A stretch of DNA of 64,000 nt from an uncultured Bacteriovoracaceae bacterium (GCA_964609695.1 CAZSSP010000007.1:8926-72925), one strand, 5' to 3'; shown: positions 6,235 through 39,841, numbered from the stretch's first letter. Notes: generated by a model from the letters alone, not told the origin. Numbers and translations: made by a program.

Positions 6235-8058
6235 CTAGGGATCTAAAAGTTTCAAATTTTCTAATCGCTTCAAATCAAAATCAGCTTTAAGTTGAAGCAG
6301 CTCTTTTTGCACTACCGCAAAAGCTTCCTCTTTAATTTTAAGTTCAGCTTCTAAACTAGCTCTTTTTTGATTGAGCTCTTCTTTGTGCTCACGCACCTTA
6401 ACATCTTCACTTGCAGCTGTATTTTCACCCATTTCGATTTCTTTCTGAGTCAAGGGGGCTCCAGCCGACCAATCCTCTTTATTCATAAAATAAGAGGTCA
6501 TTAAATGAGAGTGCTCTACATGAGCGAAGCTAGTCGCAAATTTCATTTCCACTAAATCCATAAAGTGATTTCTGTCTTCGGGATAAAGCTTCGTATAACG
6601 ACATAAAGATCTCAGCCAAAGAATCCACTGTCTCGAACTTTCATTAGAAGGAACTAATGAGCTGTCATAATTAGAATGCTTCACTTTGGAGGCTTCAACT
6701 TTTTCTAAAATAGCGAGGAGGGATCGAATCAAATCTTTAGAATGTGATTTTTCGGCATGTTCAACAAACACATTTTTCGCATCTGCCAACAAATCAGGAC
6801 TGTCTATTTTTCCATGAAAGCGAATTTGCCTCTCTAATATTCTTTCAATTCTTCGAGTCAGAGGATACTTCAAATCGAAATCTAAAATCACCTTTCCTTT
6901 ATCGAGCTCAGAAAGCTCGTCATCGATACTTTGAATTTTAGAATGAATCATGTCCAGTTCGGCTTGAGCACTGGCAACAAGATTTTGTTTTTCAATGTAT
7001 GGAGTTTGAATGTCCTGAATATTCTTAGCCACCGTATTAAGCCTAGACAATTCACCTTGAAGAAAATCTATAAATGTTGAATGCGCTTTAGAATTCCAAT
7101 GCTTAAAAATGTTTTCAATTTCACTTCGAGTAAACGATTTGATGTTATGAACAATCGCATATTGATCAAAATAACTGAATTTTTCTGGGTCAAACTCCCA
7201 ATTTTTAAACTTTAAATATTCATTATTCTGTAAGTAAAACCTAAAAAACCACATTCTTTTGTTTTCAGAATCCTTTGAACGTTTTTTTGGAACAAACACA
7301 TCATGATACAGCCTAGCTTCTGATGTCATTTCATCGAGATTATCAAAAGAAAAATTATGAATGTTAAAAAGACTCTTTGTATAACCGCTTCTCCATTTAT
7401 TAAAAAAAGCCCAATCCTCTTGGATACGTTTTGAATCTTCAAACACGACAAATATCAACGCCAAACGCATTTTATAGAGTGCGGGATCGGAATTGGCGTA
7501 ACTTCTCCAGAAAGTTAACATGGCTAAATATTTTTCCAAATCCATATCAAAACTTTTAGCCATTTTATCTGTTCTAAAATATTCACTGGCCAAATCCATT
7601 TCACGCATCATCCAAACAAATGAATTCATCGTAAAATTAATAACTTTTTTCTTAGATTCTTCACTTTGATAATTAAAATTACTTAAATGTGCTGCAGATT
7701 CTTTTAGATCTTTAAGTTTCAAAACAGACTTCATGGCTTCATATAAAATATGAGACATAAATCGACTTTTAAAAATGGGGCCCTTTTCAATAAGAACCTC
7801 AAGTTCTTGAGCAAGCTTTTCTACATTTCCTGTTTCAATTCCCAAATTCGATACAAAAATTTCAAGCCTATCTATTAAGGGTTTTGAGGCGTTTGAAGTG
7901 ACCTGGCCATTTCGAGCCAATAATAATGCCGATTCACATGATGGAGAAAGTTTTACTAAACTCAAGGAATTTGGTGCTTCAGACTCCTGAGAATGTACCC
8001 CATTTAAAAAACATCCTAAGAATAAAGAAAGACTTAAAGCTAGCCTCTTTATAGACAT
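6235..8058 (-). CDS. hypothetical secreted/lipoprotein, coiled-coil rich
   Basis: Signal peptide MSIKRLALSLSLFLGCFLNGVHS. C-terminal heptad-like charged stretches (ELNQKRASLEAELKIKEEAFAVVQKELLQLK). 607 aa, no family recognised. Confidence 0.55.
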   Translation of the reverse strand: MSIKRLALSLSLFLGCFLNGVHSQESEAPNSLSLVKLSPSCESALLLARNGQVTSNASKPLIDRLEIFVSNLGIETGNVEKLAQELEVLIEKGPIFKSRFMSHILYEAMKSVLKLKDLKESAAHLSNFNYQSEESKKKVINFTMNSFVWMMREMDLASEYFRTDKMAKSFDMDLEKYLAMLTFWRSYANSDPALYKMRLALIFVVFEDSKRIQEDWAFFNKWRSGYTKSLFNIHNFSFDNLDEMTSEARLYHDVFVPKKRSKDSENKRMWFFRFYLQNNEYLKFKNWEFDPEKFSYFDQYAIVHNIKSFTRSEIENIFKHWNSKAHSTFIDFLQGELSRLNTVAKNIQDIQTPYIEKQNLVASAQAELDMIHSKIQSIDDELSELDKGKVILDFDLKYPLTRRIERILERQIRFHGKIDSPDLLADAKNVFVEHAEKSHSKDLIRSLLAILEKVEASKVKHSNYDSSLVPSNESSRQWILWLRSLCRYTKLYPEDRNHFMDLVEMKFATSFAHVEHSHLMTSYFMNKEDWSAGAPLTQKEIEMGENTAASEDVKVREHKEELNQKRASLEAELKIKEEAFAVVQKELLQLKADFDLKRLENLKLLDP

Positions 8059-11563: not shown

Positions 11564-11740
11564 TTAAGATTTAATTTTATCTGCACTGATAGCGCGACCA
11601 TACTTCATCGCAGGAATGGGTCCGCTAAGAGGAACAGCAATTGTAGTTCCTTTGTTTTCGCGAACGCGCTTAGAAGAAGCGCCAAGAGTTTTGAGCTTAC
11701 GTGCTCTTTTGATTGAAGTGCGATGCCATGGAAAAGCCAT
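11564..11740 (-). CDS. rpmF: small basic protein, probable 50S ribosomal protein bL32
   Basis: 58-aa ORF, below the ORF-track cutoff, translated by hand: MAFPWHRTSIKRARKLKTLGASSKRVRENKGTTIAVPLSGPIPAMKYGRAISADKIKS. The MA-x-P-x-x-RTS-x-x-R-x-R N-terminus and the size match bL32. No obvious SD. Confidence 0.45.
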   Translation of the reverse strand: MAFPWHRTSIKRARKLKTLGASSKRVRENKGTTIAVPLSGPIPAMKYGRAISADKIKS

Positions 11741-11810: not shown

Positions 11811-12422
11811 TTAATGACCGCCAGAGGGATCCACCAAACGAGCCTTTAAAAATCCCACAACGACTGAATCGGCTTCTACGTCTCTCTGAACAAAAACTCT
11901 AATTTCTTGGCCGTCCCAGATCGTAAGTGATTGATTACTTTGAACATTATAGAAGTTTGGCTTAATATAAACGCGCCCATGATCGTCGCGAAGCTCTTCG
12001 CCCCCCGGCAGCACAGAACGAAGAGAGAAGATCATATTCACATCAATCGTATAGCCATCTGCTCCTATAATAGGCTCAGCTTCGAAGACATTTCCTACTT
12101 CTATAGACTGATAAACCGCCTCACCTCTCTCGATACTATCAACATATCGAAAATCTTCAGTAGACTTAACAGACACTCTCACTCCACTTTTACCTAAACT
12201 CTCGGTTACAACTTTGAGCTCAGCAAAGCCTCTTCTGACGAGATCCATCAGGGTCTCTTTTAGCTTTCCCTCGTTTTGATTGATGATATCAACGTAAGTC
12301 GCCTTTTTAACTTTAATGAGATCTAAATGTAATTGAACTTGTATTGGTGAACTCCCAGCATTAGCCGACGCCATTCCACCCAATAAAAACAAGGAACCTA
12401 ATATACGTGTGAATTTTTTCAT
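11811..12422 (-). CDS. hypothetical secreted protein (weak secretin-domain-like motif)
   Basis: ATG at 12422 is preceded by GGAGG with a 5-nt spacer. Signal peptide MKKFTRILGSLFLLGGMASANA. IEVGNVFEAEPIIGADGYTIDVNM resembles the start of the secretin domain (weak). Lies 56 nt downstream of cpaF. Confidence 0.55.
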   Translation of the reverse strand: MKKFTRILGSLFLLGGMASANAGSSPIQVQLHLDLIKVKKATYVDIINQNEGKLKETLMDLVRRGFAELKVVTESLGKSGVRVSVKSTEDFRYVDSIERGEAVYQSIEVGNVFEAEPIIGADGYTIDVNMIFSLRSVLPGGEELRDDHGRVYIKPNFYNVQSNQSLTIWDGQEIRVFVQRDVEADSVVVGFLKARLVDPSGGH

Positions 12423-12484
12423 CCCCACCTCCAGAAATAACTTTTAACAGGAGAGGCAGGACAACTTCAAGAGGGCCTAGAGAG

Positions 12485-13609
12485 CTATTTTTTTCGAATG
12501 GCTGCTTTTATGGAATATTGGTTGTTAAAGAAATCCATCGGGAAATCTACACCATGTCGACTAAAGTCATGCACAAATCTTGGCACGAAACCCAGAGAGT
12601 AAAAGCCTTTTGAAGGATCCCAAGCAAAAATTCCCTGTGTAAGAATCACATCTGACTCCATATTGCCGACCTCGATAATTTCCGTAACTCGACGACGACC
12701 ATCGGGTGTTCGCTGCACGTTGACGATCACATCAAGGGCACCCGACATGTGCTCACGAATAACTCTCATTGGAAAATCAGTGCCAGTCATGAGCACCATG
12801 GTTTCAAGTCGCCTTAAAGCTTCTCGACTGGAGTTAGCATGAAGAGTGGTCATACTTCCTTCATGACCCGTGTTCATAGCTTGAAGCATATCGAAGGCTT
12901 CGGAACCACGACACTCTCCCACTATGATGCGATCTGGTCGCATACGGAGAGCATTAATCACTAAGGTTCGAATAGAAACACCAGGATCGGTTGGAGTTTG
13001 CGGGCGCGCTTCTAAGCGAACTAAATTATCATTACGAATTTTTAATTCCGCCGCATCTTCAATACTCACAACTCGCTCGTGGGGTGGAATGAATCCACTC
13101 AAAACGTTGAGCAAAGTTGTTTTACCGGAGCCCGTTCCACCGCAAATCATAATGTTCAAACGCGCGTTCACACAGCAACTCAGAAAATAGGCAATTTTTT
13201 CATCAAACATACCGCTTGCGATCAGCTGCTCATGATTGATGGAATAGGGTGAAAATTTTCGAATAGTCACCGAGGGACCATCAACGGCTACGGGCGGAAT
13301 CACTATATTCACACGCGAGCCATCGGGAAGTCGCGCATCTAAACAAGGTGATTTTGGAGACAGTTCACGCCCCACATAGTCTGCAATACTCTTGAGCACT
13401 TGATAGAGCTCGGCTTCACTTTCAAAACTTAAAGGCGTTTTTTTAATGAGCCCCTTTTGTTCAATGAAAACTTTATTGGCCCCATTCACCATGATCTCAG
13501 TAACACTGGGGTCGTCAAGCAATGGAATTAATGGGCCAAAATGACTTTGCCACTGTGAATCTTTTACTTTACTGACGGCCCATTGAGACATGTTCATCTT
13601 TTCGGCCAT
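12485..13609 (-). CDS. cpaF: CpaF/TadA-family type II/IV secretion ATPase
   Basis: Walker A GGTGSGKTTLLN, VSIEDAAEL, RMRPDRIIVGECRGSEAFDMLQAMNTGHEGSMTTLHANS and RLPDGSRVNIVIPPVAVDGPSVTIRKF are all CpaF/TadA hallmarks. Confidence 0.9.
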   Translation of the reverse strand: MAEKMNMSQWAVSKVKDSQWQSHFGPLIPLLDDPSVTEIMVNGANKVFIEQKGLIKKTPLSFESEAELYQVLKSIADYVGRELSPKSPCLDARLPDGSRVNIVIPPVAVDGPSVTIRKFSPYSINHEQLIASGMFDEKIAYFLSCCVNARLNIMICGGTGSGKTTLLNVLSGFIPPHERVVSIEDAAELKIRNDNLVRLEARPQTPTDPGVSIRTLVINALRMRPDRIIVGECRGSEAFDMLQAMNTGHEGSMTTLHANSSREALRRLETMVLMTGTDFPMRVIREHMSGALDVIVNVQRTPDGRRRVTEIIEVGNMESDVILTQGIFAWDPSKGFYSLGFVPRFVHDFSRHGVDFPMDFFNNQYSIKAAIRKK

Positions 13610-13643
13610 GCAAGGACTGGGCTAAAGCTTTTCGCAATTTTTT

Positions 13644-13833
13644 TATTGTGCGCTAATAAACGGGCCTGCAATATTATAAATAAAAGTTATTAAGATCTTT
13701 AAATTCAATAACTAGAGCATCTTGGGGTGAGCGATGGGGCAAAGCCCCGAGCTTCAGGGGTCGCCCAAGCCGCTCTAGTTATTGAGTTTAAAGATCTAAA
13801 TAGATTTGCAGGCCCGTTTCTTAGCGCACAATA
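13644..13833. repeat. 190-bp nested-palindrome element, copy 1
   Basis: Outer arms 13644-13669 / 13808-13833, inner arms 13694-13718 / 13772-13796, central GGGGC-AAA-GCCCC tip. About 90% identical to 38517-38706 in the same orientation. Confidence 0.9.
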
Positions 13834-13837
13834 GAAT

Positions 13838-14263
13838 TTAGCGGGTGGAGGGGATTGGAAGCCAGGCGGGTTGAAGTTCTTTGAGCTCTTCTTTTTCTTC
13901 CTTGCGTTTACGTTTGCGAGGATAGTTTTTTGTAGGATCATCTGATGATCCACGAGTAAAAATTAAAAGCTCAGGTATAAACTTTCCATGATATGCTTCA
14001 GGATCAGATTCGGTGGCTTCTCTAAAATGAAGCATTATATCGACACCCATCCACACAAAAGAAACGTGTCGTCCGTGTTCGTCGAGCAAAGGGACATATA
14101 AATTATCTGAATAATAAGACCAATGTGAATTAGCTTTTTCAATATCATGAGTTTTAAGCTCTCTTAAAATTAAATCTCTAAACATTGAAAAACTAGGGAT
14201 GAGCGAATGCATTAACAAATGAGAAACAGCGGCCCATATATTGGCGGCAAAAGCTAAACACAT
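13838..14263 (-). CDS. hypothetical protein (possibly the C-terminal part of a gene interrupted by TGA)
   Basis: 141-aa ORF, hydrophobic N-terminus, basic/acidic tail KNYPRKRKRKEEKEELKEL. Same frame as the upstream ORF 14309..14884, with a single TGA and 15 sense codons between them. Confidence 0.4.
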   Translation of the reverse strand: MCLAFAANIWAAVSHLLMHSLIPSFSMFRDLILRELKTHDIEKANSHWSYYSDNLYVPLLDEHGRHVSFVWMGVDIMLHFREATESDPEAYHGKFIPELLIFTRGSSDDPTKNYPRKRKRKEEKEELKELQPAWLPIPSTR

Positions 14264-14308
14264 ACCCGCTCCAAAACCACTAAAACTTTGAGAGGCTAAA
14301 CCGGCAAA

Positions 14309-14884
14309 TCACCCCAAAAAAAGTCCCGTCTTCACTCCTGAACGAGTTGCAGAAATCATTGTAAGAGGTAGCTGAATTTTTCTAAAATAAGTCCAAGGAG
14401 AAATAGGATCATTGTTAAGCGCTTTTATAGCCTCTAAAATATTTTCATTCCCAACAATTCTAATTCCAAAACTAACATTCTTTCCTTCTTCGTCAGTACC
14501 GCCAGCACTATCGCCCAAGTTGAGCTCTAAGCCGCGAATTCGAGCCGCCAAAGCGGCCATGTGTTTTTTATTTTTTTCATGTGCCGAATGAGAATGCACC
14601 ACGTGAATACTTGGAATGATGGAATTATCAAAACCCAATCTACTTTGTCGAAAATTCCTGAGTTCAGTCAAAGCCTCTAAAGTAACCTTACGTCGTTCGG
14701 TTTCAATAGCTCCCGAACCTTCAACAGTTAAGGTGAGTGCGGCCTCGCAAATTGGATAACCAAACTGTCGCCATCGCTCAGGCTTGTATTGTTTTTCTGT
14801 TTCATCTGCAAAAACTCTTAGGGGATTGAAAAGAGACAAAGACAAAAGTGAGTATCGAAAGAAACTCGAAAAACGCATGGCCAA
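14309..14884 (-). CDS. hypothetical secreted protein (possibly the N-terminal part of a gene interrupted by TGA)
   Basis: Signal-like N-terminus MAMRFSSFFRYSLLSLSLFNPLRVFA. Ends ...GVKTGLFLG-TGA in the middle of a hydrophobic stretch. Confidence 0.5.
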   Translation of the reverse strand: MAMRFSSFFRYSLLSLSLFNPLRVFADETEKQYKPERWRQFGYPICEAALTLTVEGSGAIETERRKVTLEALTELRNFRQSRLGFDNSIIPSIHVVHSHSAHEKNKKHMAALAARIRGLELNLGDSAGGTDEEGKNVSFGIRIVGNENILEAIKALNNDPISPWTYFRKIQLPLTMISATRSGVKTGLFLG

Positions 14885-14902
14885 GCTATAGACTTAATTA
14901 TG

Positions 14903-16186
14903 CTAAGCGTCAATTAACTTCAGGGCTAAGGTTAAGGATTTTTGGGAGAAATAGAGCTTATTTTGCAATCGCTCAAAAGTTACAGGTGTTTGAACTTTAT
15001 GAGTCTCCACAATCACTGAAGATTGCTTTCTTCCAAAGGCTAATCCTACATGGCACAAACCCACAGGTTTCTCAGAAGTCCCCCCATTAGGTCCAGCTAT
15101 TCCCGTTGTTGATATCACTAAAATACTAGATTCAGGAAATTGAACTTTAAGTTTTTCATAACCCTTTAAAGCCATTTCTCTTGCACATTCTTCAGAAACA
15201 GCCCCATGAGATTTCAAAATCTCAGCGCTCACACCTAAACTCAATTTCATAGCATTATCGTAAGTGACCCACGAACCCATAAGAACTTCTGAAGCCCCGG
15301 AGATATCACTGATTCGACTAGAATTGAGTCCCCCTGTACAAGACTCAACAAAAGCTAAAATAATATTTTTGCTTTTTAATTTTTCAAAAAAAAGTTCTGG
15401 GAGCTCAGAGGGATTTTCTCCGTGAGTGTAGGTTGAGGGGGCTAAAATTTCAGTGATCTCTTTTTTTAAACTTTCAAAACTTTGAATTTTTTCTGGAGAA
15501 TCTAAATTTCCAAAAAGTGAAATGTAATTTTCAGGAAATTTTGTTCGAAACGCTAATTCAAAATCTTTAGGCAACTTTGAAATTAACTCTTTGAGATCCA
15601 TTTGAAGCGCGCTTTCGGCCGTAAATTGAGTCACCCAATGATAATGTCGATAGTCATCATTTCTAGGTATCTGAGACTGAATTTTTTCTTCATAAATTCC
15701 CTGAAGTTCTCTAGGAACACCTGGGAGAAAAAACCATTGGCGAGTGCGCTCTTTAAAGGTAAATGCGGGTGCTGTTCCAAAGTTATTGGCGATAACCTCA
15801 ACTCCTTGAGGCAAAATAGCTTGCTTTAACTGGGCTTCATTAACTGGGCGCTTTCTCTTTTCAAGCCAAGCTCTCACCATAATTTCGGCTTCAGCATTGA
15901 GCACGGGCTCAGAGTGCTGAAATTTGGCAAAGGCCTCAGACGTTAAATCATCGGACGTAGGCCCCAAACCACCACTGACAAAAATAATATCTGATCTTCG
16001 CGAAGCAATTTCAAAAGCCTCAATAATTCTGGAAATCTCATCATCAACTTTTTGGGCATGTCTTAAAACCAATCCTAAATTTTTTAATTTTTGAGCCAAC
16101 CAAACGGAATTGGTGTCAATCACTCTACCGTCGAGTATCTCGCGACCTATAGCAATGAACTCTACAATTTTTTGCGCTGAACTCAT
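14903..16186 (-). CDS. cinA: CinA-family protein (MoCF-binding domain plus nicotinamide-nucleotide amidase PncC domain)
   Basis: GGLGPTSDDLT in the N-terminal domain and ESCTGG in the C-terminal domain; 427 aa. Confidence 0.85.
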   Translation of the reverse strand: MSSAQKIVEFIAIGREILDGRVIDTNSVWLAQKLKNLGLVLRHAQKVDDEISRIIEAFEIASRRSDIIFVSGGLGPTSDDLTSEAFAKFQHSEPVLNAEAEIMVRAWLEKRKRPVNEAQLKQAILPQGVEVIANNFGTAPAFTFKERTRQWFFLPGVPRELQGIYEEKIQSQIPRNDDYRHYHWVTQFTAESALQMDLKELISKLPKDFELAFRTKFPENYISLFGNLDSPEKIQSFESLKKEITEILAPSTYTHGENPSELPELFFEKLKSKNIILAFVESCTGGLNSSRISDISGASEVLMGSWVTYDNAMKLSLGVSAEILKSHGAVSEECAREMALKGYEKLKVQFPESSILVISTTGIAGPNGGTSEKPVGLCHVGLAFGRKQSSVIVETHKVQTPVTFERLQNKLYFSQKSLTLALKLIDA

Positions 16187-16764
16187 AAACGTGAATCTCC
16201 CGACTGAAGATGGGCTTCCAACAAAGCTAATGCACCCGCCACTAAACCATGATCAACTTTTTTATTAAGCAACATTTGAAAACGATCTTTAAAGGGATGC
16301 CATTGAACATCTAAAACTTCACTACCATCACCCAGGACAACTGAAGGGTCTAATTCGCATCCAAAAGCTAAAAAGGCATGAACTCGATTTCTGAAAAGTG
16401 CGGGATTAGATGAAAAGTTCCCTAAGTAAAGCCAGCGCCCCGCTCGAGCTCCAGTTTCCTCTAGCAACTCTCTTTTAGCAGCCAAGAGTGGGTCGACGTC
16501 CTCTTCTTCAAGCGCACCCCCCGGAATTTCAAGCGTGGTGCACTCTGGCCCAACCCTGAATTGCTCTACCCAAAGCAAGCGAGCTTCTGGGCGCCTTAAT
16601 GAATCGGTATCAACAGCAATAACCTGCACCCAATCTCTTGTTTCTAAAACCACAAAAGGGTGTTCTATTTGGGCCACGTCATGGCTATGCGGCTCTCGAA
16701 ATATTTTGAAATGACGAGTTTGATAGAGAAGCTGTCGACCTAACTTTCTCCACATCAAATTCAT
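16183..16764 (-). CDS. NUDIX hydrolase
   Basis: NUDIX box GGALEEEDVDPLLAAKRELLEETG. 4-nt overlap with the cinA start. Confidence 0.85.
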   Translation of the reverse strand: MNLMWRKLGRQLLYQTRHFKIFREPHSHDVAQIEHPFVVLETRDWVQVIAVDTDSLRRPEARLLWVEQFRVGPECTTLEIPGGALEEEDVDPLLAAKRELLEETGARAGRWLYLGNFSSNPALFRNRVHAFLAFGCELDPSVVLGDGSEVLDVQWHPFKDRFQMLLNKKVDHGLVAGALALLEAHLQSGDSRL

Positions 16765-37091: not shown

Positions 37092-38426
37092 TTAGAATTT
37101 GGACTGAAACTCAAGAAGTGCCGCATAATCGGCATTGAGAACGGCTATGTCTTCATGAAACAAATCAACATCAGCCAAGACGTTAATTAAGTTTTTAGTG
37201 ATTTCCACTTCCTCTCCCACTTTAAAATGCCAGCTAGAATCGCGATAAGATTTTAAAGAACGCACAAATGCCATATCTTCAGCACTTAGGATTCTACCCC
37301 CCTTTTTGGACACCAACGACACCTGAAAGGCGAGTTTATTTTTGAGCCAAGGCTTTTGAATTTCTTCGTGAAATCTTTGAGGATCGGCGTAACTCAACAA
37401 GCTTAAACGAGCCTCATCTAAGCCCGTCACTTCTTTTATAAGAGCGGGAAGCAAAGCACCCGCCATTCGAGGATTAGGCTCAACCAAAACTGGATCGGGG
37501 TGTGTCCAGTCTGCAACCTTAATCTCCAAATGCGCCGGTCCGTATCGGAAACCCAAGGCGTCGAGCACTTTTTTCCCATAGGCTTCAAGCGCCTCTCGCT
37601 CGGGCGCAAATTGAGATAAAAGCCGTGTATTTTGCTTCACAAAACTACCATTAGCTAAGCGGAGATTTTCGTATTCCATTATGTAAGCCAAATGATGTTT
37701 TCCAGCACTGCTTATAAACTCAACGATATATTCCGTACCCTCAAGAAACTCTTGCACCACAACTTCGCGATTGGGCAAAAGGAGGCTATTGAAAGGTTTA
37801 TTTCTTATGGCCCAAAAAGCTTCCTCTAGAGCTTGCATATTATCCACGGCCGCCACATTTTCACTTCCAGCTCCATGCGTGGGCTTAACAACAACTGGCC
37901 ATTCGGGATGAATATTCTTTTTCCAATCGAGAACATCACTCCACTCGATAGATCTCATTTGCTTAGCAGAGCGAATTCCCTCGTGAGATTTTAAAACCAT
38001 ATTCGAAAGAAATTTATCTTTTCGAGCTTCACTCAATTCAAAATCATTTCGTCTTGATAAGTTTAAGCGTTCCGACAAATAGTCCGCCATCACCACACCG
38101 GTATCAGTTCCCGGTACTATAAAATCAGGTGCCAATTCCTTAATTTGAGGCAGCAATTCATCCCAAGATTGCGCTTGATTGAAGATCTCTCTCGATCCCT
38201 CAAAATCTTGAGCTTGATAAGAGGCCGTAAAGACTGGTGGTACCTCACTCTTAGAATGCAATGCTATGATTTCATAACCTAATTCTTTAGCAGCAGCGGC
38301 ATACAAAGATCCCGAGGAATAGGGATCGACAACGATGACCCTTCGAAGATTTGTAATAAAGTCCTGACACGACCATAGTGGTCCAGAAAAGCTTAAGGAT
38401 AAAGCTACAACCAAGGCTAAAATCAT
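37092..38426 (-). CDS. ATP-grasp domain protein with N-terminal hydrophobic anchor
   Basis: VVKPTHGAGSENV and EFLEGTEYIVEF are ATP-grasp features. ATG at 38426 gives MILALVVALSLSFSGPLWSC followed by NLRRV. The listed TTG at 38465 is an alternative start. Confidence 0.7.
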   Translation of the reverse strand: MILALVVALSLSFSGPLWSCQDFITNLRRVIVVDPYSSGSLYAAAAKELGYEIIALHSKSEVPPVFTASYQAQDFEGSREIFNQAQSWDELLPQIKELAPDFIVPGTDTGVVMADYLSERLNLSRRNDFELSEARKDKFLSNMVLKSHEGIRSAKQMRSIEWSDVLDWKKNIHPEWPVVVKPTHGAGSENVAAVDNMQALEEAFWAIRNKPFNSLLLPNREVVVQEFLEGTEYIVEFISSAGKHHLAYIMEYENLRLANGSFVKQNTRLLSQFAPEREALEAYGKKVLDALGFRYGPAHLEIKVADWTHPDPVLVEPNPRMAGALLPALIKEVTGLDEARLSLLSYADPQRFHEEIQKPWLKNKLAFQVSLVSKKGGRILSAEDMAFVRSLKSYRDSSWHFKVGEEVEITKNLINVLADVDLFHEDIAVLNADYAALLEFQSKF

Positions 38427-38516
38427 CGAGGGCTCTTGGTTAGCATGAGCACAAAAATCATTCAAAACTCGAAACCTTACAAAGTCTTACACACCAAAAC
38501 TTAAAGTATGAAATTC

Positions 38517-38706
38517 TATTGTGCGCTAAGAAACGGGCCTGGAATATTAAAGCTAAAATTTATTAATATCTTTAAATTCAAAGACTAGAGCATCTTGGGG
38601 TGAGCGATGAGGCAACGCCTCGAGCTTCAGGGGTCGCCCAAGCCGCTCTAGTCTTTGAATTTAAAGATATAGATAGATTTCCAGGCCCGTTTCTTAGCGC
38701 ACAATA
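38517..38706. repeat. 190-bp nested-palindrome element, copy 2
   Basis: Same length and orientation as 13644-13833. Outer arms 38517-38542 / 38681-38706 pair perfectly, inner arms 38566-38591 / 38645-38670 pair perfectly, tip GAGGC-AAC-GCCTC. Confidence 0.9.
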
Positions 38707-38725: not shown

Positions 38726-39841
38726 TTAGCGGAAAATTAGATTAAATTCGCAAGAATTATCAGCAGTTCTGAGTTCTTTATGCGCTTTTTTTGAAGCTCG
38801 AGTGGCCTGCCAAAGACTATAGAATCCAGCAGCCCCCATCACACCAAAAGCCCACTCCGCGTGCGGATAATTGATCATTCTCAGCACCGTTAGAATTCCC
38901 GTTGAAATCATAGAAGCGCCCAGCAAACCAAAAGTCGATTTTAATAAAATACTAGCCCGATCCTCTCCCAACAGATGCCTATTTTCTGCACGAGTTGTGA
39001 AAGAAAGATCCCATGAACCCTGCGCAAAAGTGGCCATAGCTGCCGTTGATAGTACATTCAAAGCCGCTGGCCCAAAGTCTTGAGAATGCCCCATAAAAGT
39101 CCAACCTGTTTTTAAAACAGCCATAAAAAGGACTTCAAAAGCATACCAGCGACCAAACTGCTCCACCCAATCACAAATCGACTTCAACTGTTTTTCTTGA
39201 TCATCTTCGAGTTTCAACCCAAAAGTCGCTAAACTTCGAGTCAAAGCAGATCCCAAGCCACCGCGAGTGGTCATCCAACCGTAAAGTGTTTTGGCAAAAA
39301 ATTGAACATTGCCCGACAACAAACCCACCCAAGCTCCCATCGCCAAACTTATTGGCCAAGGAGTCGATCCATCCGATATCCTTAAACTCATAAATGCTAC
39401 ACTGGTCTGAAAGCTTCCTCTGACAAGAGCAAAGGTCCAGCGATAATTTTTCAACATGGACTTTTTTAGCTTGGCATAAAACTTTTGAAGATCCTTTTTA
39501 GGTCGAGGAACAAATTTAATAGAAAGCGTCGCCTCCCTCTCCAAAGAAGCCATCATTCTAGATAACGGAGATTGCGAATCCTCAAGCAGAGTTTTGAAAT
39601 TTTCATCAATCTCTATTTGAAGCTTCACCGTTTTATTGAGTTTTTTTTGTGAATGAATTTTGTGAATGAGTTCTGATTCAATTTGTGCCCAATCATCGTC
39701 TGTAGCTGTAGCCAATCCATCGATGAGAATTTCCTGTTTATGATGTTGAAGCTTTAACTGAACTGACTCAAGACGAGCCTCAACATTGATACAAATAAAA
39801 AGGAATAATAAGAATAAAGTCCTCAAAAACCCCAAATTCAC
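38726..39841 (-). CDS. hypothetical polytopic membrane protein
   Basis: Signal/anchor MNLGFLRTLFLLFLFICINVEA, a soluble helical region of about 130 aa, then several hydrophobic helices. No family recognised. Confidence 0.5.
   Translation of the reverse strand: MNLGFLRTLFLLFLFICINVEARLESVQLKLQHHKQEILIDGLATATDDDWAQIESELIHKIHSQKKLNKTVKLQIEIDENFKTLLEDSQSPLSRMMASLEREATLSIKFVPRPKKDLQKFYAKLKKSMLKNYRWTFALVRGSFQTSVAFMSLRISDGSTPWPISLAMGAWVGLLSGNVQFFAKTLYGWMTTRGGLGSALTRSLATFGLKLEDDQEKQLKSICDWVEQFGRWYAFEVLFMAVLKTGWTFMGHSQDFGPAALNVLSTAAMATFAQGSWDLSFTTRAENRHLLGEDRASILLKSTFGLLGASMISTGILTVLRMINYPHAEWAFGVMGAAGFYSLWQATRASKKAHKELRTADNSCEFNLIFR

Follow-up and report, generated by a model that had tools for sequence, protein, structure and literature searches.

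Two co-directional genes in a 64,000-nucleotide stretch of DNA from an uncultured Bacteriovoracaceae bacterium (GCA_964609695.1 CAZSSP010000007.1:8926-72925) are separated by a 190-bp palindrome, which raises the question of what such an element is and why it is kept at this site. The whole 64-kb stretch is referred to as the window; it contains the palindrome at 13644..13833 (copy 1), next to a cpaF-type gene, and a second copy at 38517..38706 (copy 2), and its + strand is the orientation set by the asymmetric core of the repeat. Both copies belong to a lineage-specific family of non-coding palindromic repeats, 188-190 bp long and interspersed in the genome of an uncultivated, Bdellovibrionota-like bacterium; the arms have diverged from copy to copy, and paired changes have yet kept them complementary. 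Repeats of this palindromic, intergenic kind are common, and their function and their spread are rarely settled. The family described here is an unusually clean case, having a low copy number, three sharply bounded parts and natural inverted, half-deleted and empty variants at defined loci. Given an isolate or suitable read data, it would let one ask whether the hairpin is kept for the host (for mRNA processing or protection, or for protein binding) or for its own mobility, and whether arm-to-arm template switching maintains the palindrome.

The repeat is one long hairpin built from three parts

The outer arms of copy 1 are at 13641-13671 and 13806-13836 (31 nt, complementarity of 94%), and within them the 26-nt stretches 13644-13669 and 13808-13833 pair with a sole mismatch, T13657/C13820, as the first-pass annotation of this locus had described. 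The inner-arm pairing claimed there is also present, at 13683-13726 and 13764-13807 (44 nt, 86%), as are the central CTTGGG/CCCAAG and the GGGGC-AAA-GCCCC tip at 13736-13748. When folded as RNA, copy 1 reaches -111.7 kcal/mol for the + strand and -101.6 kcal/mol for the - strand, where the shuffle means are -46 and -42 (z of -14.7 and -15.3, with 0 of 200 shuffles being as good); as single-stranded DNA it reaches -66.3 kcal/mol (z of -15.6). Each of the window copies forms a hairpin of ~85 bp, with a z of about -15. The proposal of a single long imperfect hairpin is therefore upheld, every pairing on which it was based being found and the fold energies being far outside chance.

From its ends inwards, copy 1 (+ strand; 212.8 bits with the nhmmer family profile on this strand and 101.7 bits on the other) consists of the following parts. 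The left 26-bp terminal inverted repeat (TATTGTGCGCTAATAAACGGGCCTGC; 13644..13669, +) and the right one (13808..13833, -) are defined by the end motif and the family alignment. Within positions 2-25 of the left repeat the family varies only at position 14, which is T in copy 1 and L017 and G elsewhere. Next to it is an asymmetric AT-rich internal loop (13672..13686, +), with 15 nt unpaired on this side and 2 nt opposite in the minimum free energy structure; its sequence differs from copy to copy, and it serves as the orientation marker for the outer part. The left inner arm (13687..13718, +) is AT-rich and copy-specific in sequence, and its complementarity to the right inner arm (13772..13803, +), with which it pairs, is kept. 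Between these arms lies the near-invariant, asymmetric, GC-rich core (13719..13771, +), which includes CTTGGG/CCCAAG, the AGC/GCT stem, the tip hairpin at 13736-13748 and a conserved unpaired CAGGGGTCG at 13755-13763.

The same division is visible in an alignment of 14 copies oriented by the asymmetric core (A3). Positions 2-25 and 166-189, in the 26-bp ends, are essentially invariant apart from a few single substitutions, and positions 76-128, the 53-bp core, are near-invariant including the unpaired CAGGGGYCG, while the AT-rich arms and the 15-nt one-sided loop vary freely. When the hairpin of copy 1 is imposed on this alignment, 96.5% of 1,034 cells are standard pairs, and 16 pairs (46 cells) have changed on both sides; in helix 2, formed by the inner arms, this is the case for 11 of 37 pairs. 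The covariation score is 0.147, compared with 0.065 in shuffles. None of 500 shuffles matches the observed percentage paired, the double-change counts or the covariation score, and 30 of the 500 reach the count of further pair types. In controls with slid partners the pairing falls to 28-49%. Covariation is also seen within the core, where the tip pair is G-C in eight copies and A-U in six, and where the AGC/GCU stem is replaced by GGC/GCC or AAC/GUU in some copies.

The second copy reported at 38517-38706 (+) is real, as shown by the profile and by an ungapped alignment with copy 1, flanks included, that gives 91% column identity; it has the same orientation in the relatives L008 (from the genome described below) and L027. 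Changes on both arms are apparent already from these two copies: CTGCAA/TTGCAG in one is CTGGAA/TTCCAG in the other, CAATAAC/GTTATTG is exchanged for CAAAGAC/GTCTTTG, and at the tip GGGGC/GCCCC for GAGGC/GCCTC. The 25-nt end motif has four exact matches in the window, where 0.00 are expected, and the search of the window with the family profile finds no copies beyond copies 1 and 2.

The family is dispersed in one lineage

An exact scan for the end motif in 185,579 species-representative genomes gives 15 loci, 14 of which are on 12 contigs of one metagenome-assembled genome (MAG), 'Proteobacteria bacterium Gw_Eff_bin_446' (JAGNHS01). Among these 14 loci, one of which has only one exact end, are 12 full copies (188-190 bp), a solo arm (L010) and a pair of arm remnants that surrounds a small open reading frame (ORF) in L015. 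The copy count of this MAG is a lower bound, at least 12 full copies plus remnants. The repeated element that had been recognised from two copies thus has many more, and since at least 12 of them are dispersed, it is not merely a duplicated terminator. The fifteenth locus, L005 of a Rhodomicrobium MAG, was rejected; it has no partner, and ~1 chance match is expected there for 20 specified bases.

The window is 90-93% identical in nucleotide sequence to JAGNHS01, so that it does not come from that MAG, and it is 98-99.9% identical to contigs from other samples. The host is placed near Bdellovibrionota because the CpaF homologues named Bdellovibrionales or Bdellovibrionota are ~60-64% identical to its CpaF. 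In relatives whose CpaF is 86% and 71% identical, no copy is found at the cpaF locus or in the 5-21 kb of sequence examined. Searches with the 190-mer (blastn) find no match among plasmids and phages, and none in 5,426 complete E. coli genomes at word size 11. The exact end motif has no match in the metagenome-contig and viral collections; the core motif has none in viral contigs, and its two matches elsewhere are within high-GC coding DNA and were discarded as chance. The earlier statement that no Rfam family could be recognised is confirmed at the gathering threshold, where the covariance scan of the window gives no match, and a scan at a permissive E-value gives only miRNA-hairpin noise of at most 19 bits, the thresholds being 70-230.

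Several Logan and JGI contigs from short-k assemblies (L020-L024 and L027) stop exactly where the 26-bp end meets the interior, or at the palindrome centre. Because such assemblies break at the repeat, its copy number in MAGs is probably underestimated.

Conservation of the resident copies

Constraint on the resident copies was assessed by comparing the window with the orthologous copies of JAGNHS01 and their flanks. The four-fold degenerate sites of the flanking genes are 20-39% different, and these genes as a whole are 91-94% identical. The spacers adjoining the repeats are 68-88% identical (84% and 68% for those touching copy 2), whereas the copy 2 orthologues are 97.9% identical (4/190 differences) and the copy 1 orthologues, after re-orienting, 95.8% identical (8/190). 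The Fisher tests against the four-fold sites give p = 8e-13 and 9e-14, that of copy 2 against its own adjoining spacers gives p = 4e-6, and the conservation falls sharply at the edges of the element. The copy-specific arm sequences are common to orthologues, not to paralogues, and therefore the low divergence does not result from homogenisation among copies. When judged from these sequence comparisons, the resident copies are under purifying selection along their whole length, and their evolution is clearly several-fold slower than that of the neighbouring silent sites.

Genomic context, non-coding character and strand

The window is 40% G+C and very compact, with most intergenic gaps being shorter than 20 nt, and copies 1 and 2 occupy two of its four largest gaps. 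In eight of 12 independent loci a stop codon is at most 20 nt from one end of the repeat (gaps of -2 to 19 nt). Between co-directional genes the repeat is 3-19 nt past the upstream stop and 34-386 nt before the next start; three or four loci are between convergent genes and two (L007 and L014) between divergent genes. The orientation of the repeat relative to the upstream gene is mixed among the copies. No functional theme is found among the neighbours, which are unrelated housekeeping genes (glycosyltransferase, subtilase, Dtd, deaminase, cytochrome c and unknowns).

The position just past stop codons, combined with a GC-rich tip hairpin, is reminiscent of intrinsic terminators, and the window could be thought to hold merely two duplicated ones. 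This explanation is extremely improbable, as the intrinsic terminator scan around both window copies finds nothing at the elements and no U-tract or T-run follows the hairpin on either strand; a size of 190 bp with invariant ends, and at least 12 dispersed copies of which two are between divergent genes, do not fit it either.

The element encodes no credible protein, as had been noted from the sequence of copy 1. Its only internal ATG ORF (MGQSPELQGSPKPL, 14 codons, in the core) was rejected as coding, the ATG not being conserved: it is missing in five of 14 copies. The first-pass annotation had also read G-T positions as a weak hint of an RNA antisense to the flanking genes. The family-wide counts do show an excess of G.T/T.G over A.C/C.A on the + strand (48 vs 4, or 15 vs 3 once three fixed loop-adjacent sites are left out). 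Among the mismatches at these loosely paired positions, G.G and T.T exceed C.C and A.A by 17 to 4, and since this excess equals that of the wobbles, it reflects a G+T composition skew and not selection for wobble pairs. The antisense hint is likewise lost when the copies are compared, because the orientation relative to the neighbours differs among them and is inverted at the cpaF locus in three related assemblies. It is therefore very unlikely that the copies are free-standing small RNA genes, each with its own promoter and read from the core-defined + strand, even if the conserved bulge asymmetry, the wobble counts and, in A3, a weak TTGTGC-18 nt-AATATT arrangement confined to the left end can be cited for this. 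The -10-like hexamer of that arrangement is not conserved among copies, no Rfam family matches, and the sigma-70 promoter scan around both window copies, like the terminator scan, gives nothing within the elements or at their edges.

Inverted alleles and decay of the palindrome

Seven contigs (six among those listed) encode an identical CpaF, and the repeat at the cpaF locus is found in three states. In state A, seen in the window and in two Logan contigs that are 99.9% identical to it, the long loop is next to cpaF. In state B, seen in the MAG and in two JGI contigs that are 98.4% identical to the window, the whole interior is inverted. The half-deleted state is that of L019, a 94%-identical contig in which the distal arm and the core are missing and an A-type proximal half is kept. 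The segment between the inverted repeats is thus present both ways, as A in the window, L019, L020 and L021 and as B in L016, L017 and L018. Each state is seen in at least two independent assemblies, and an assembly artefact is therefore an unlikely source of these states. Further contigs sought for both window loci either stop at the repeat (Logan contigs) or show no new state.

The two orientations in close relatives, and the presence of a TATAAT that faces cpaF only in the window orientation, suggest an inverton, whose segment between the 26-bp inverted repeats would be turned round by a site-specific recombinase, so that the expression of cpaF and other neighbours varies. In size and inverted repeats the element resembles known invertible promoters, among which are fimS and the Mpi-controlled regions of Bacteroides. 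The allele comparison makes this explanation highly improbable. The window and L017 differ at 6/2,210 flanking positions and at 7/190 positions in the element, in addition to the inversion (p = 2e-5), and five of these seven differences are common to the B allele of the MAG, including a compensatory C-G to T-A pair. The orientation is therefore linked to five internal substitutions across lineages with flanks that are 99.7% and ~91% identical, so that A and B are old haplotypes and not the products of a fast switch. The TATAAT is in the variable loop, is absent from the other copies and is not part of a predicted promoter, and the 60 nt beside cpaF are identical in both states. There is no recombinase gene in the window, and copy 2 has a single orientation in three assemblies.

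A further copy, L003, has its core flipped relative to the one-sided loop, and it has therefore undergone a second inversion, with different, internal breakpoints, which also argues against an inverton. The solo arms of L010 and L015 and the half-deletion of L019 are typical products of palindrome instability. PMC8604942 and PMC8794818 describe template switching between inverted repeats as a process by which arms are homogenised, changes become clustered and spacers are inverted. The same arm homogenisation, clustered substitutions and inversion are seen in the cpaF-locus alleles and in L003. As a mutational process it would account for the upkeep and the flipping of the palindrome, but not for the dispersal or the conservation of the element.

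In L015 (7045-7486) the arm remnants are in inverted orientation, one being exact and the other having three mismatches, and they enclose 380 bp with a small lipoprotein-like ORF (lipobox LFSC) and its own terminator-like hairpin. These remnants are either two independent half-deleted copies or the ends of a cassette.

The assembly behaviour of the repeat also has practical consequences, since short-k assemblies break at its ends and centre and since either orientation may be assembled or real; this affects MAG quality and automated 'inverton' calls.

Spread of the family

Paralogues at unrelated loci can be nearly identical (L001 and L013, 98.4%; L001 and L012, 95.8%), the other pairs being 72-93% identical. 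Both window copies are retained in the MAG. A filled and an empty site are found between the cytochrome c and deaminase genes, which in the MAG (L011) are separated by 279 nt including a repeat, and which are 2 nt apart in a relative (L031/L032) whose genes at this site are 89% identical to those of the MAG. The 277-bp segment of L011 that is missing from L031 and L032, where the two convergent genes adjoin, includes the 87 nt that lead from the stop codon of the cytochrome c gene to the repeat (6527-6613); these are unique in the examined sequence, and in them a T-run comes after a GC-rich hairpin, AGCGCG...CGCGCT.

No displaced direct repeats beyond chance surround the copies. TA is present on both sides of six of 12 copies, where 4.5 are expected, and GA...TC is found at copies that were duplicated recently. 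The only preference seen in the flanks is a weak, symmetric AATTY. Pairs of end motifs that flank a gene-sized insert are absent from the species-representative genomes scanned (185,579). Four candidate sites were inspected by eye and rejected: the ends have no internal dyad as in a Xer/dif-like site, attC R/L boxes and parS were discarded, and the IHF consensus has only partial matches in the arms.

Dispersal among unrelated genes, near-identical paralogues, the filled and empty site, the decaying remnants with the degenerate copy L003, and a REPIN-like architecture of conserved ends and compensated spacer (PMC3116915) would all be explained if the family were a purely selfish miniature mobile element, whose hairpin and invariant ends would persist for no other reason than the requirements of the mobilising enzyme. 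Such a reading is rather unlikely, since copies older than the split of two lineages have accumulated 5-10 times less divergence than silent sites, and also less than the genes and spacers that adjoin them. Selection for transposability would not shield individual resident copies, and useless 190-bp inserts should disappear from a very compact genome.

Proposed explanation

The explanation preferred here is a palindromic repeat of mobile origin, similar to the ERIC, Correia and REPIN elements, that now probably acts as a co-transcribed RNA hairpin, and moderate confidence is placed in this account. The family would have spread as a small non-autonomous mobile element, with an enzyme encoded elsewhere and without an obvious target duplication. 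Copies inside or at the end of transcription units would be transcribed with the neighbouring mRNA, and either strand of a copy can fold into the ~85-bp hairpin. MITE-type repeats (miniature inverted-repeat transposable elements) at gene 3' ends are co-transcribed and some of them govern mRNA stability (PMC3184786). The working form would then be an orientation-independent RNA duplex, which would shield the upstream message at its 3' end and/or be cut by an RNase III-type enzyme specific for double strands, the role reported for ERIC and Correia repeats (PMC3184786); at copy 1, such cutting would detach the upstream cistron from cpaF. The arms would also interact as DNA, by intra-element recombination or by replication template switching, which would explain the paired arm changes, the inverted cpaF allele, the flipped core of L003 and the half-deleted remnants.

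Several observations weigh against this combined account. The RNA role of the hairpin is pure inference, a role at 3' ends is inapplicable to L007 and L014, which are between divergent genes, and neither window copy has a predicted terminator or a U-tract after the hairpin. With respect to mobility, no target-site duplication of 3 bp or more abuts the ends of 12 copies at boundary offsets of -2 to +8; a Pfam scan of the 62 window ORFs finds no transposase, integrase, invertase, recombinase or RAYT, and an all-vs-all blastn in which the window and MAG loci totalling ~120 kb were compared finds no candidate insertion sequence repeat, only this element and a second palindrome family. At the filled site, 78-87 nt of unique sequence accompany the palindrome, and a direct repeat of 10-13 bp, AAATTAGTAG(T/C)TG, bounds this extra DNA; the direct repeat occurs once in the empty site and is 78-87 nt from the left end of the palindrome. 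Gain with duplication and loss by deletion both fit this arrangement. The invariant 26-bp ends and the core, with its 9-nt unpaired CAGGGGTCG, go beyond a structural role and point to a sequence-specific partner, which would be a host protein or the mobilising enzyme, and it is because of this additional partner that no more than moderate confidence is placed in the account.

One way to accommodate such a partner is to regard the family as a domesticated structured module that is read sequence-specifically, by a dedicated partner, at the 26-bp stem base and the asymmetric core. This is unlikely on present evidence, and two versions of it are open: in the first, the partner would be a hairpin-recognising single-stranded DNA mobilisation system that makes no target duplication and is unrelated to RAYT and REP; in the second, it would be an RNA- or DNA-binding regulator, and the tens of tagged genes, including that of the Tad-pilus ATPase CpaF, would form one post-transcriptional regulon. 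If true, this regulon would be in a lineage related to predatory bacteria. Also unlikely is a site that acts at the level of DNA, where the duplex ends and core, or an extruded cruciform, would be bound by a host protein (for example a regulator, a topoisomerase or one associated with the nucleoid), as is described for REP/BIME clusters in E. coli. The 26-bp ends and the 53-bp core are indeed invariant across paralogues with diverged arms, the arrangement is independent of orientation, the potential to form single-stranded hairpins or cruciforms is strong, and BIMEs bind IHF, DNA polymerase I and gyrase (PMC3184786). The binding protein would however be putative only, a covariation that holds ~70 base pairs is needless for duplex binding, and there are only ~15 copies per genome assembly.

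Neighbouring genes and other features

The downstream neighbour of copy 1 (12485..13609, -) was labelled cpaF in the first-pass annotation, which is here refined to a gene for a T2SSE/CpaF-type ATPase (PF00437). Its start is 34 nt from the repeat, as reported earlier, whereas the gap to the upstream stop codon (13838-13840), given as 5 nt, is measured as 4 nt. The upstream neighbour (13838..14884, -), of unknown function, is a single 346-aa ORF in the relatives L016-L018. In the window this ORF is split by an in-frame TGA at 14309-14311 (-), in place of the GGA (Gly) of L017; a nonsense mutation (a pseudogene), a sequencing error or a recoded codon would each account for it. Copy 2 is preceded by a gene for a 371-aa protein without a Pfam match (38726..39841, -), whose stop codon is 19 nt from the repeat, and is followed by a gene for an ATP-grasp protein (37092..38465, -), for which the start called in a relative is the ATG at 38426.

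When the window (13610-16609) is compared with L017, the silent-site divergence is 0.6% in cpaF and 5.2% in cinA, and in the 346-aa gene between the repeat and cinA only 4/1,051 positions differ. This jump in silent-site divergence suggests a recombination boundary between the 346-aa gene and cinA. Downstream of cpaF, a 58-aa ORF and an adjoining 205-aa gene (11564-11740 and 11811-12428) are 96% and 83% identical, respectively, between the window and the MAG; the former is called as a gene in all relatives and the latter is absent from L029, the relative with a 71%-identical CpaF. The evolutionary rates of these two neighbours are very different.

The MAG also has a palindrome family unrelated to the first (87-145 bp; arms GGCGCCTAGCGACTTTTTAC...CCCCCCACCTTT), which is found at two or more of its loci (L010 949-1093 and L002 4349-4435 of JAGNHS01) and is absent from the window.

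Comparison with known repeat families

The MITE- and REP-like repeats that the first-pass annotation had named for comparison are the right class. As in strict MITEs, the size is below ~400 bp without a transposase gene, the ends are terminal inverted repeats and the multiple copies are dispersed; with no target-site duplication, one defining feature of a strict MITE is missing. The closest resemblance in general design can be examined for three known groups.

The ERIC/IRU element (127 bp) is reportedly co-transcribed and affects mRNA stability (PMC3184786), and RU-2 is a 168-bp repeat of Enterobacteriaceae (PMC2759123). Like these, the repeats described here are whole-element imperfect palindromes, non-coding and present in tens of copies, at transcribed intergenic sites near gene 3' ends and in either orientation. 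The likeness is partial at the termini, where ERIC and RU-2 have 5'-TA-3' on both sides in most copies and where this is seen in six of 12 copies of the present family, not as a duplication. The differences are that the sequences are not similar, as shown by the blastn search of 5,426 E. coli genomes, that the hosts are of another phylum and that the present repeat is longer (190 bp) and tripartite, its arms covarying between ends and an asymmetric core that are both invariant.

The Correia/NEMIS elements of Neisseria are also comparable, being ~100-160 bp long with 26-bp terminal inverted repeats and forming long hairpins in read-through mRNAs. Their hairpins are reportedly processed by RNase III, as described by De Gregorio et al. 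Roles of these elements in mRNA processing and stability have been described (PMC3184786). Correia elements, however, make a TA duplication, have an IHF site and promoters directed outwards, and are present in hundreds of copies, whereas the present family has neither a duplication nor a predicted promoter and has tens of copies.

REPINs, which are mobilised by RAYT, share with the present family the conserved inverted ends, the compensated and less conserved spacer, the hairpin in single-stranded DNA or mRNA, the lack of target duplication and the singlet remnants (PMC3116915). In PMC3733652 the REP tag is given as GTAG or CGTC. When read from the sequence, the 26-bp ends described here have no internal stem and no such tag, so that they are not REP palindromes; in addition, no RAYT is present among the 62 window ORFs, and, at about twice the length of a REPIN, the present element has a conserved asymmetric core.

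The repeat would thus work like the ERIC/RU-2, Correia and REPIN elements, yet it is a member of none of these groups. Its unusual features are the strong constraint on resident copies, the old inverted alleles and the duplication-free spread, and it is best regarded as a previously undescribed, lineage-restricted family within a well-known class of palindromic repeats.

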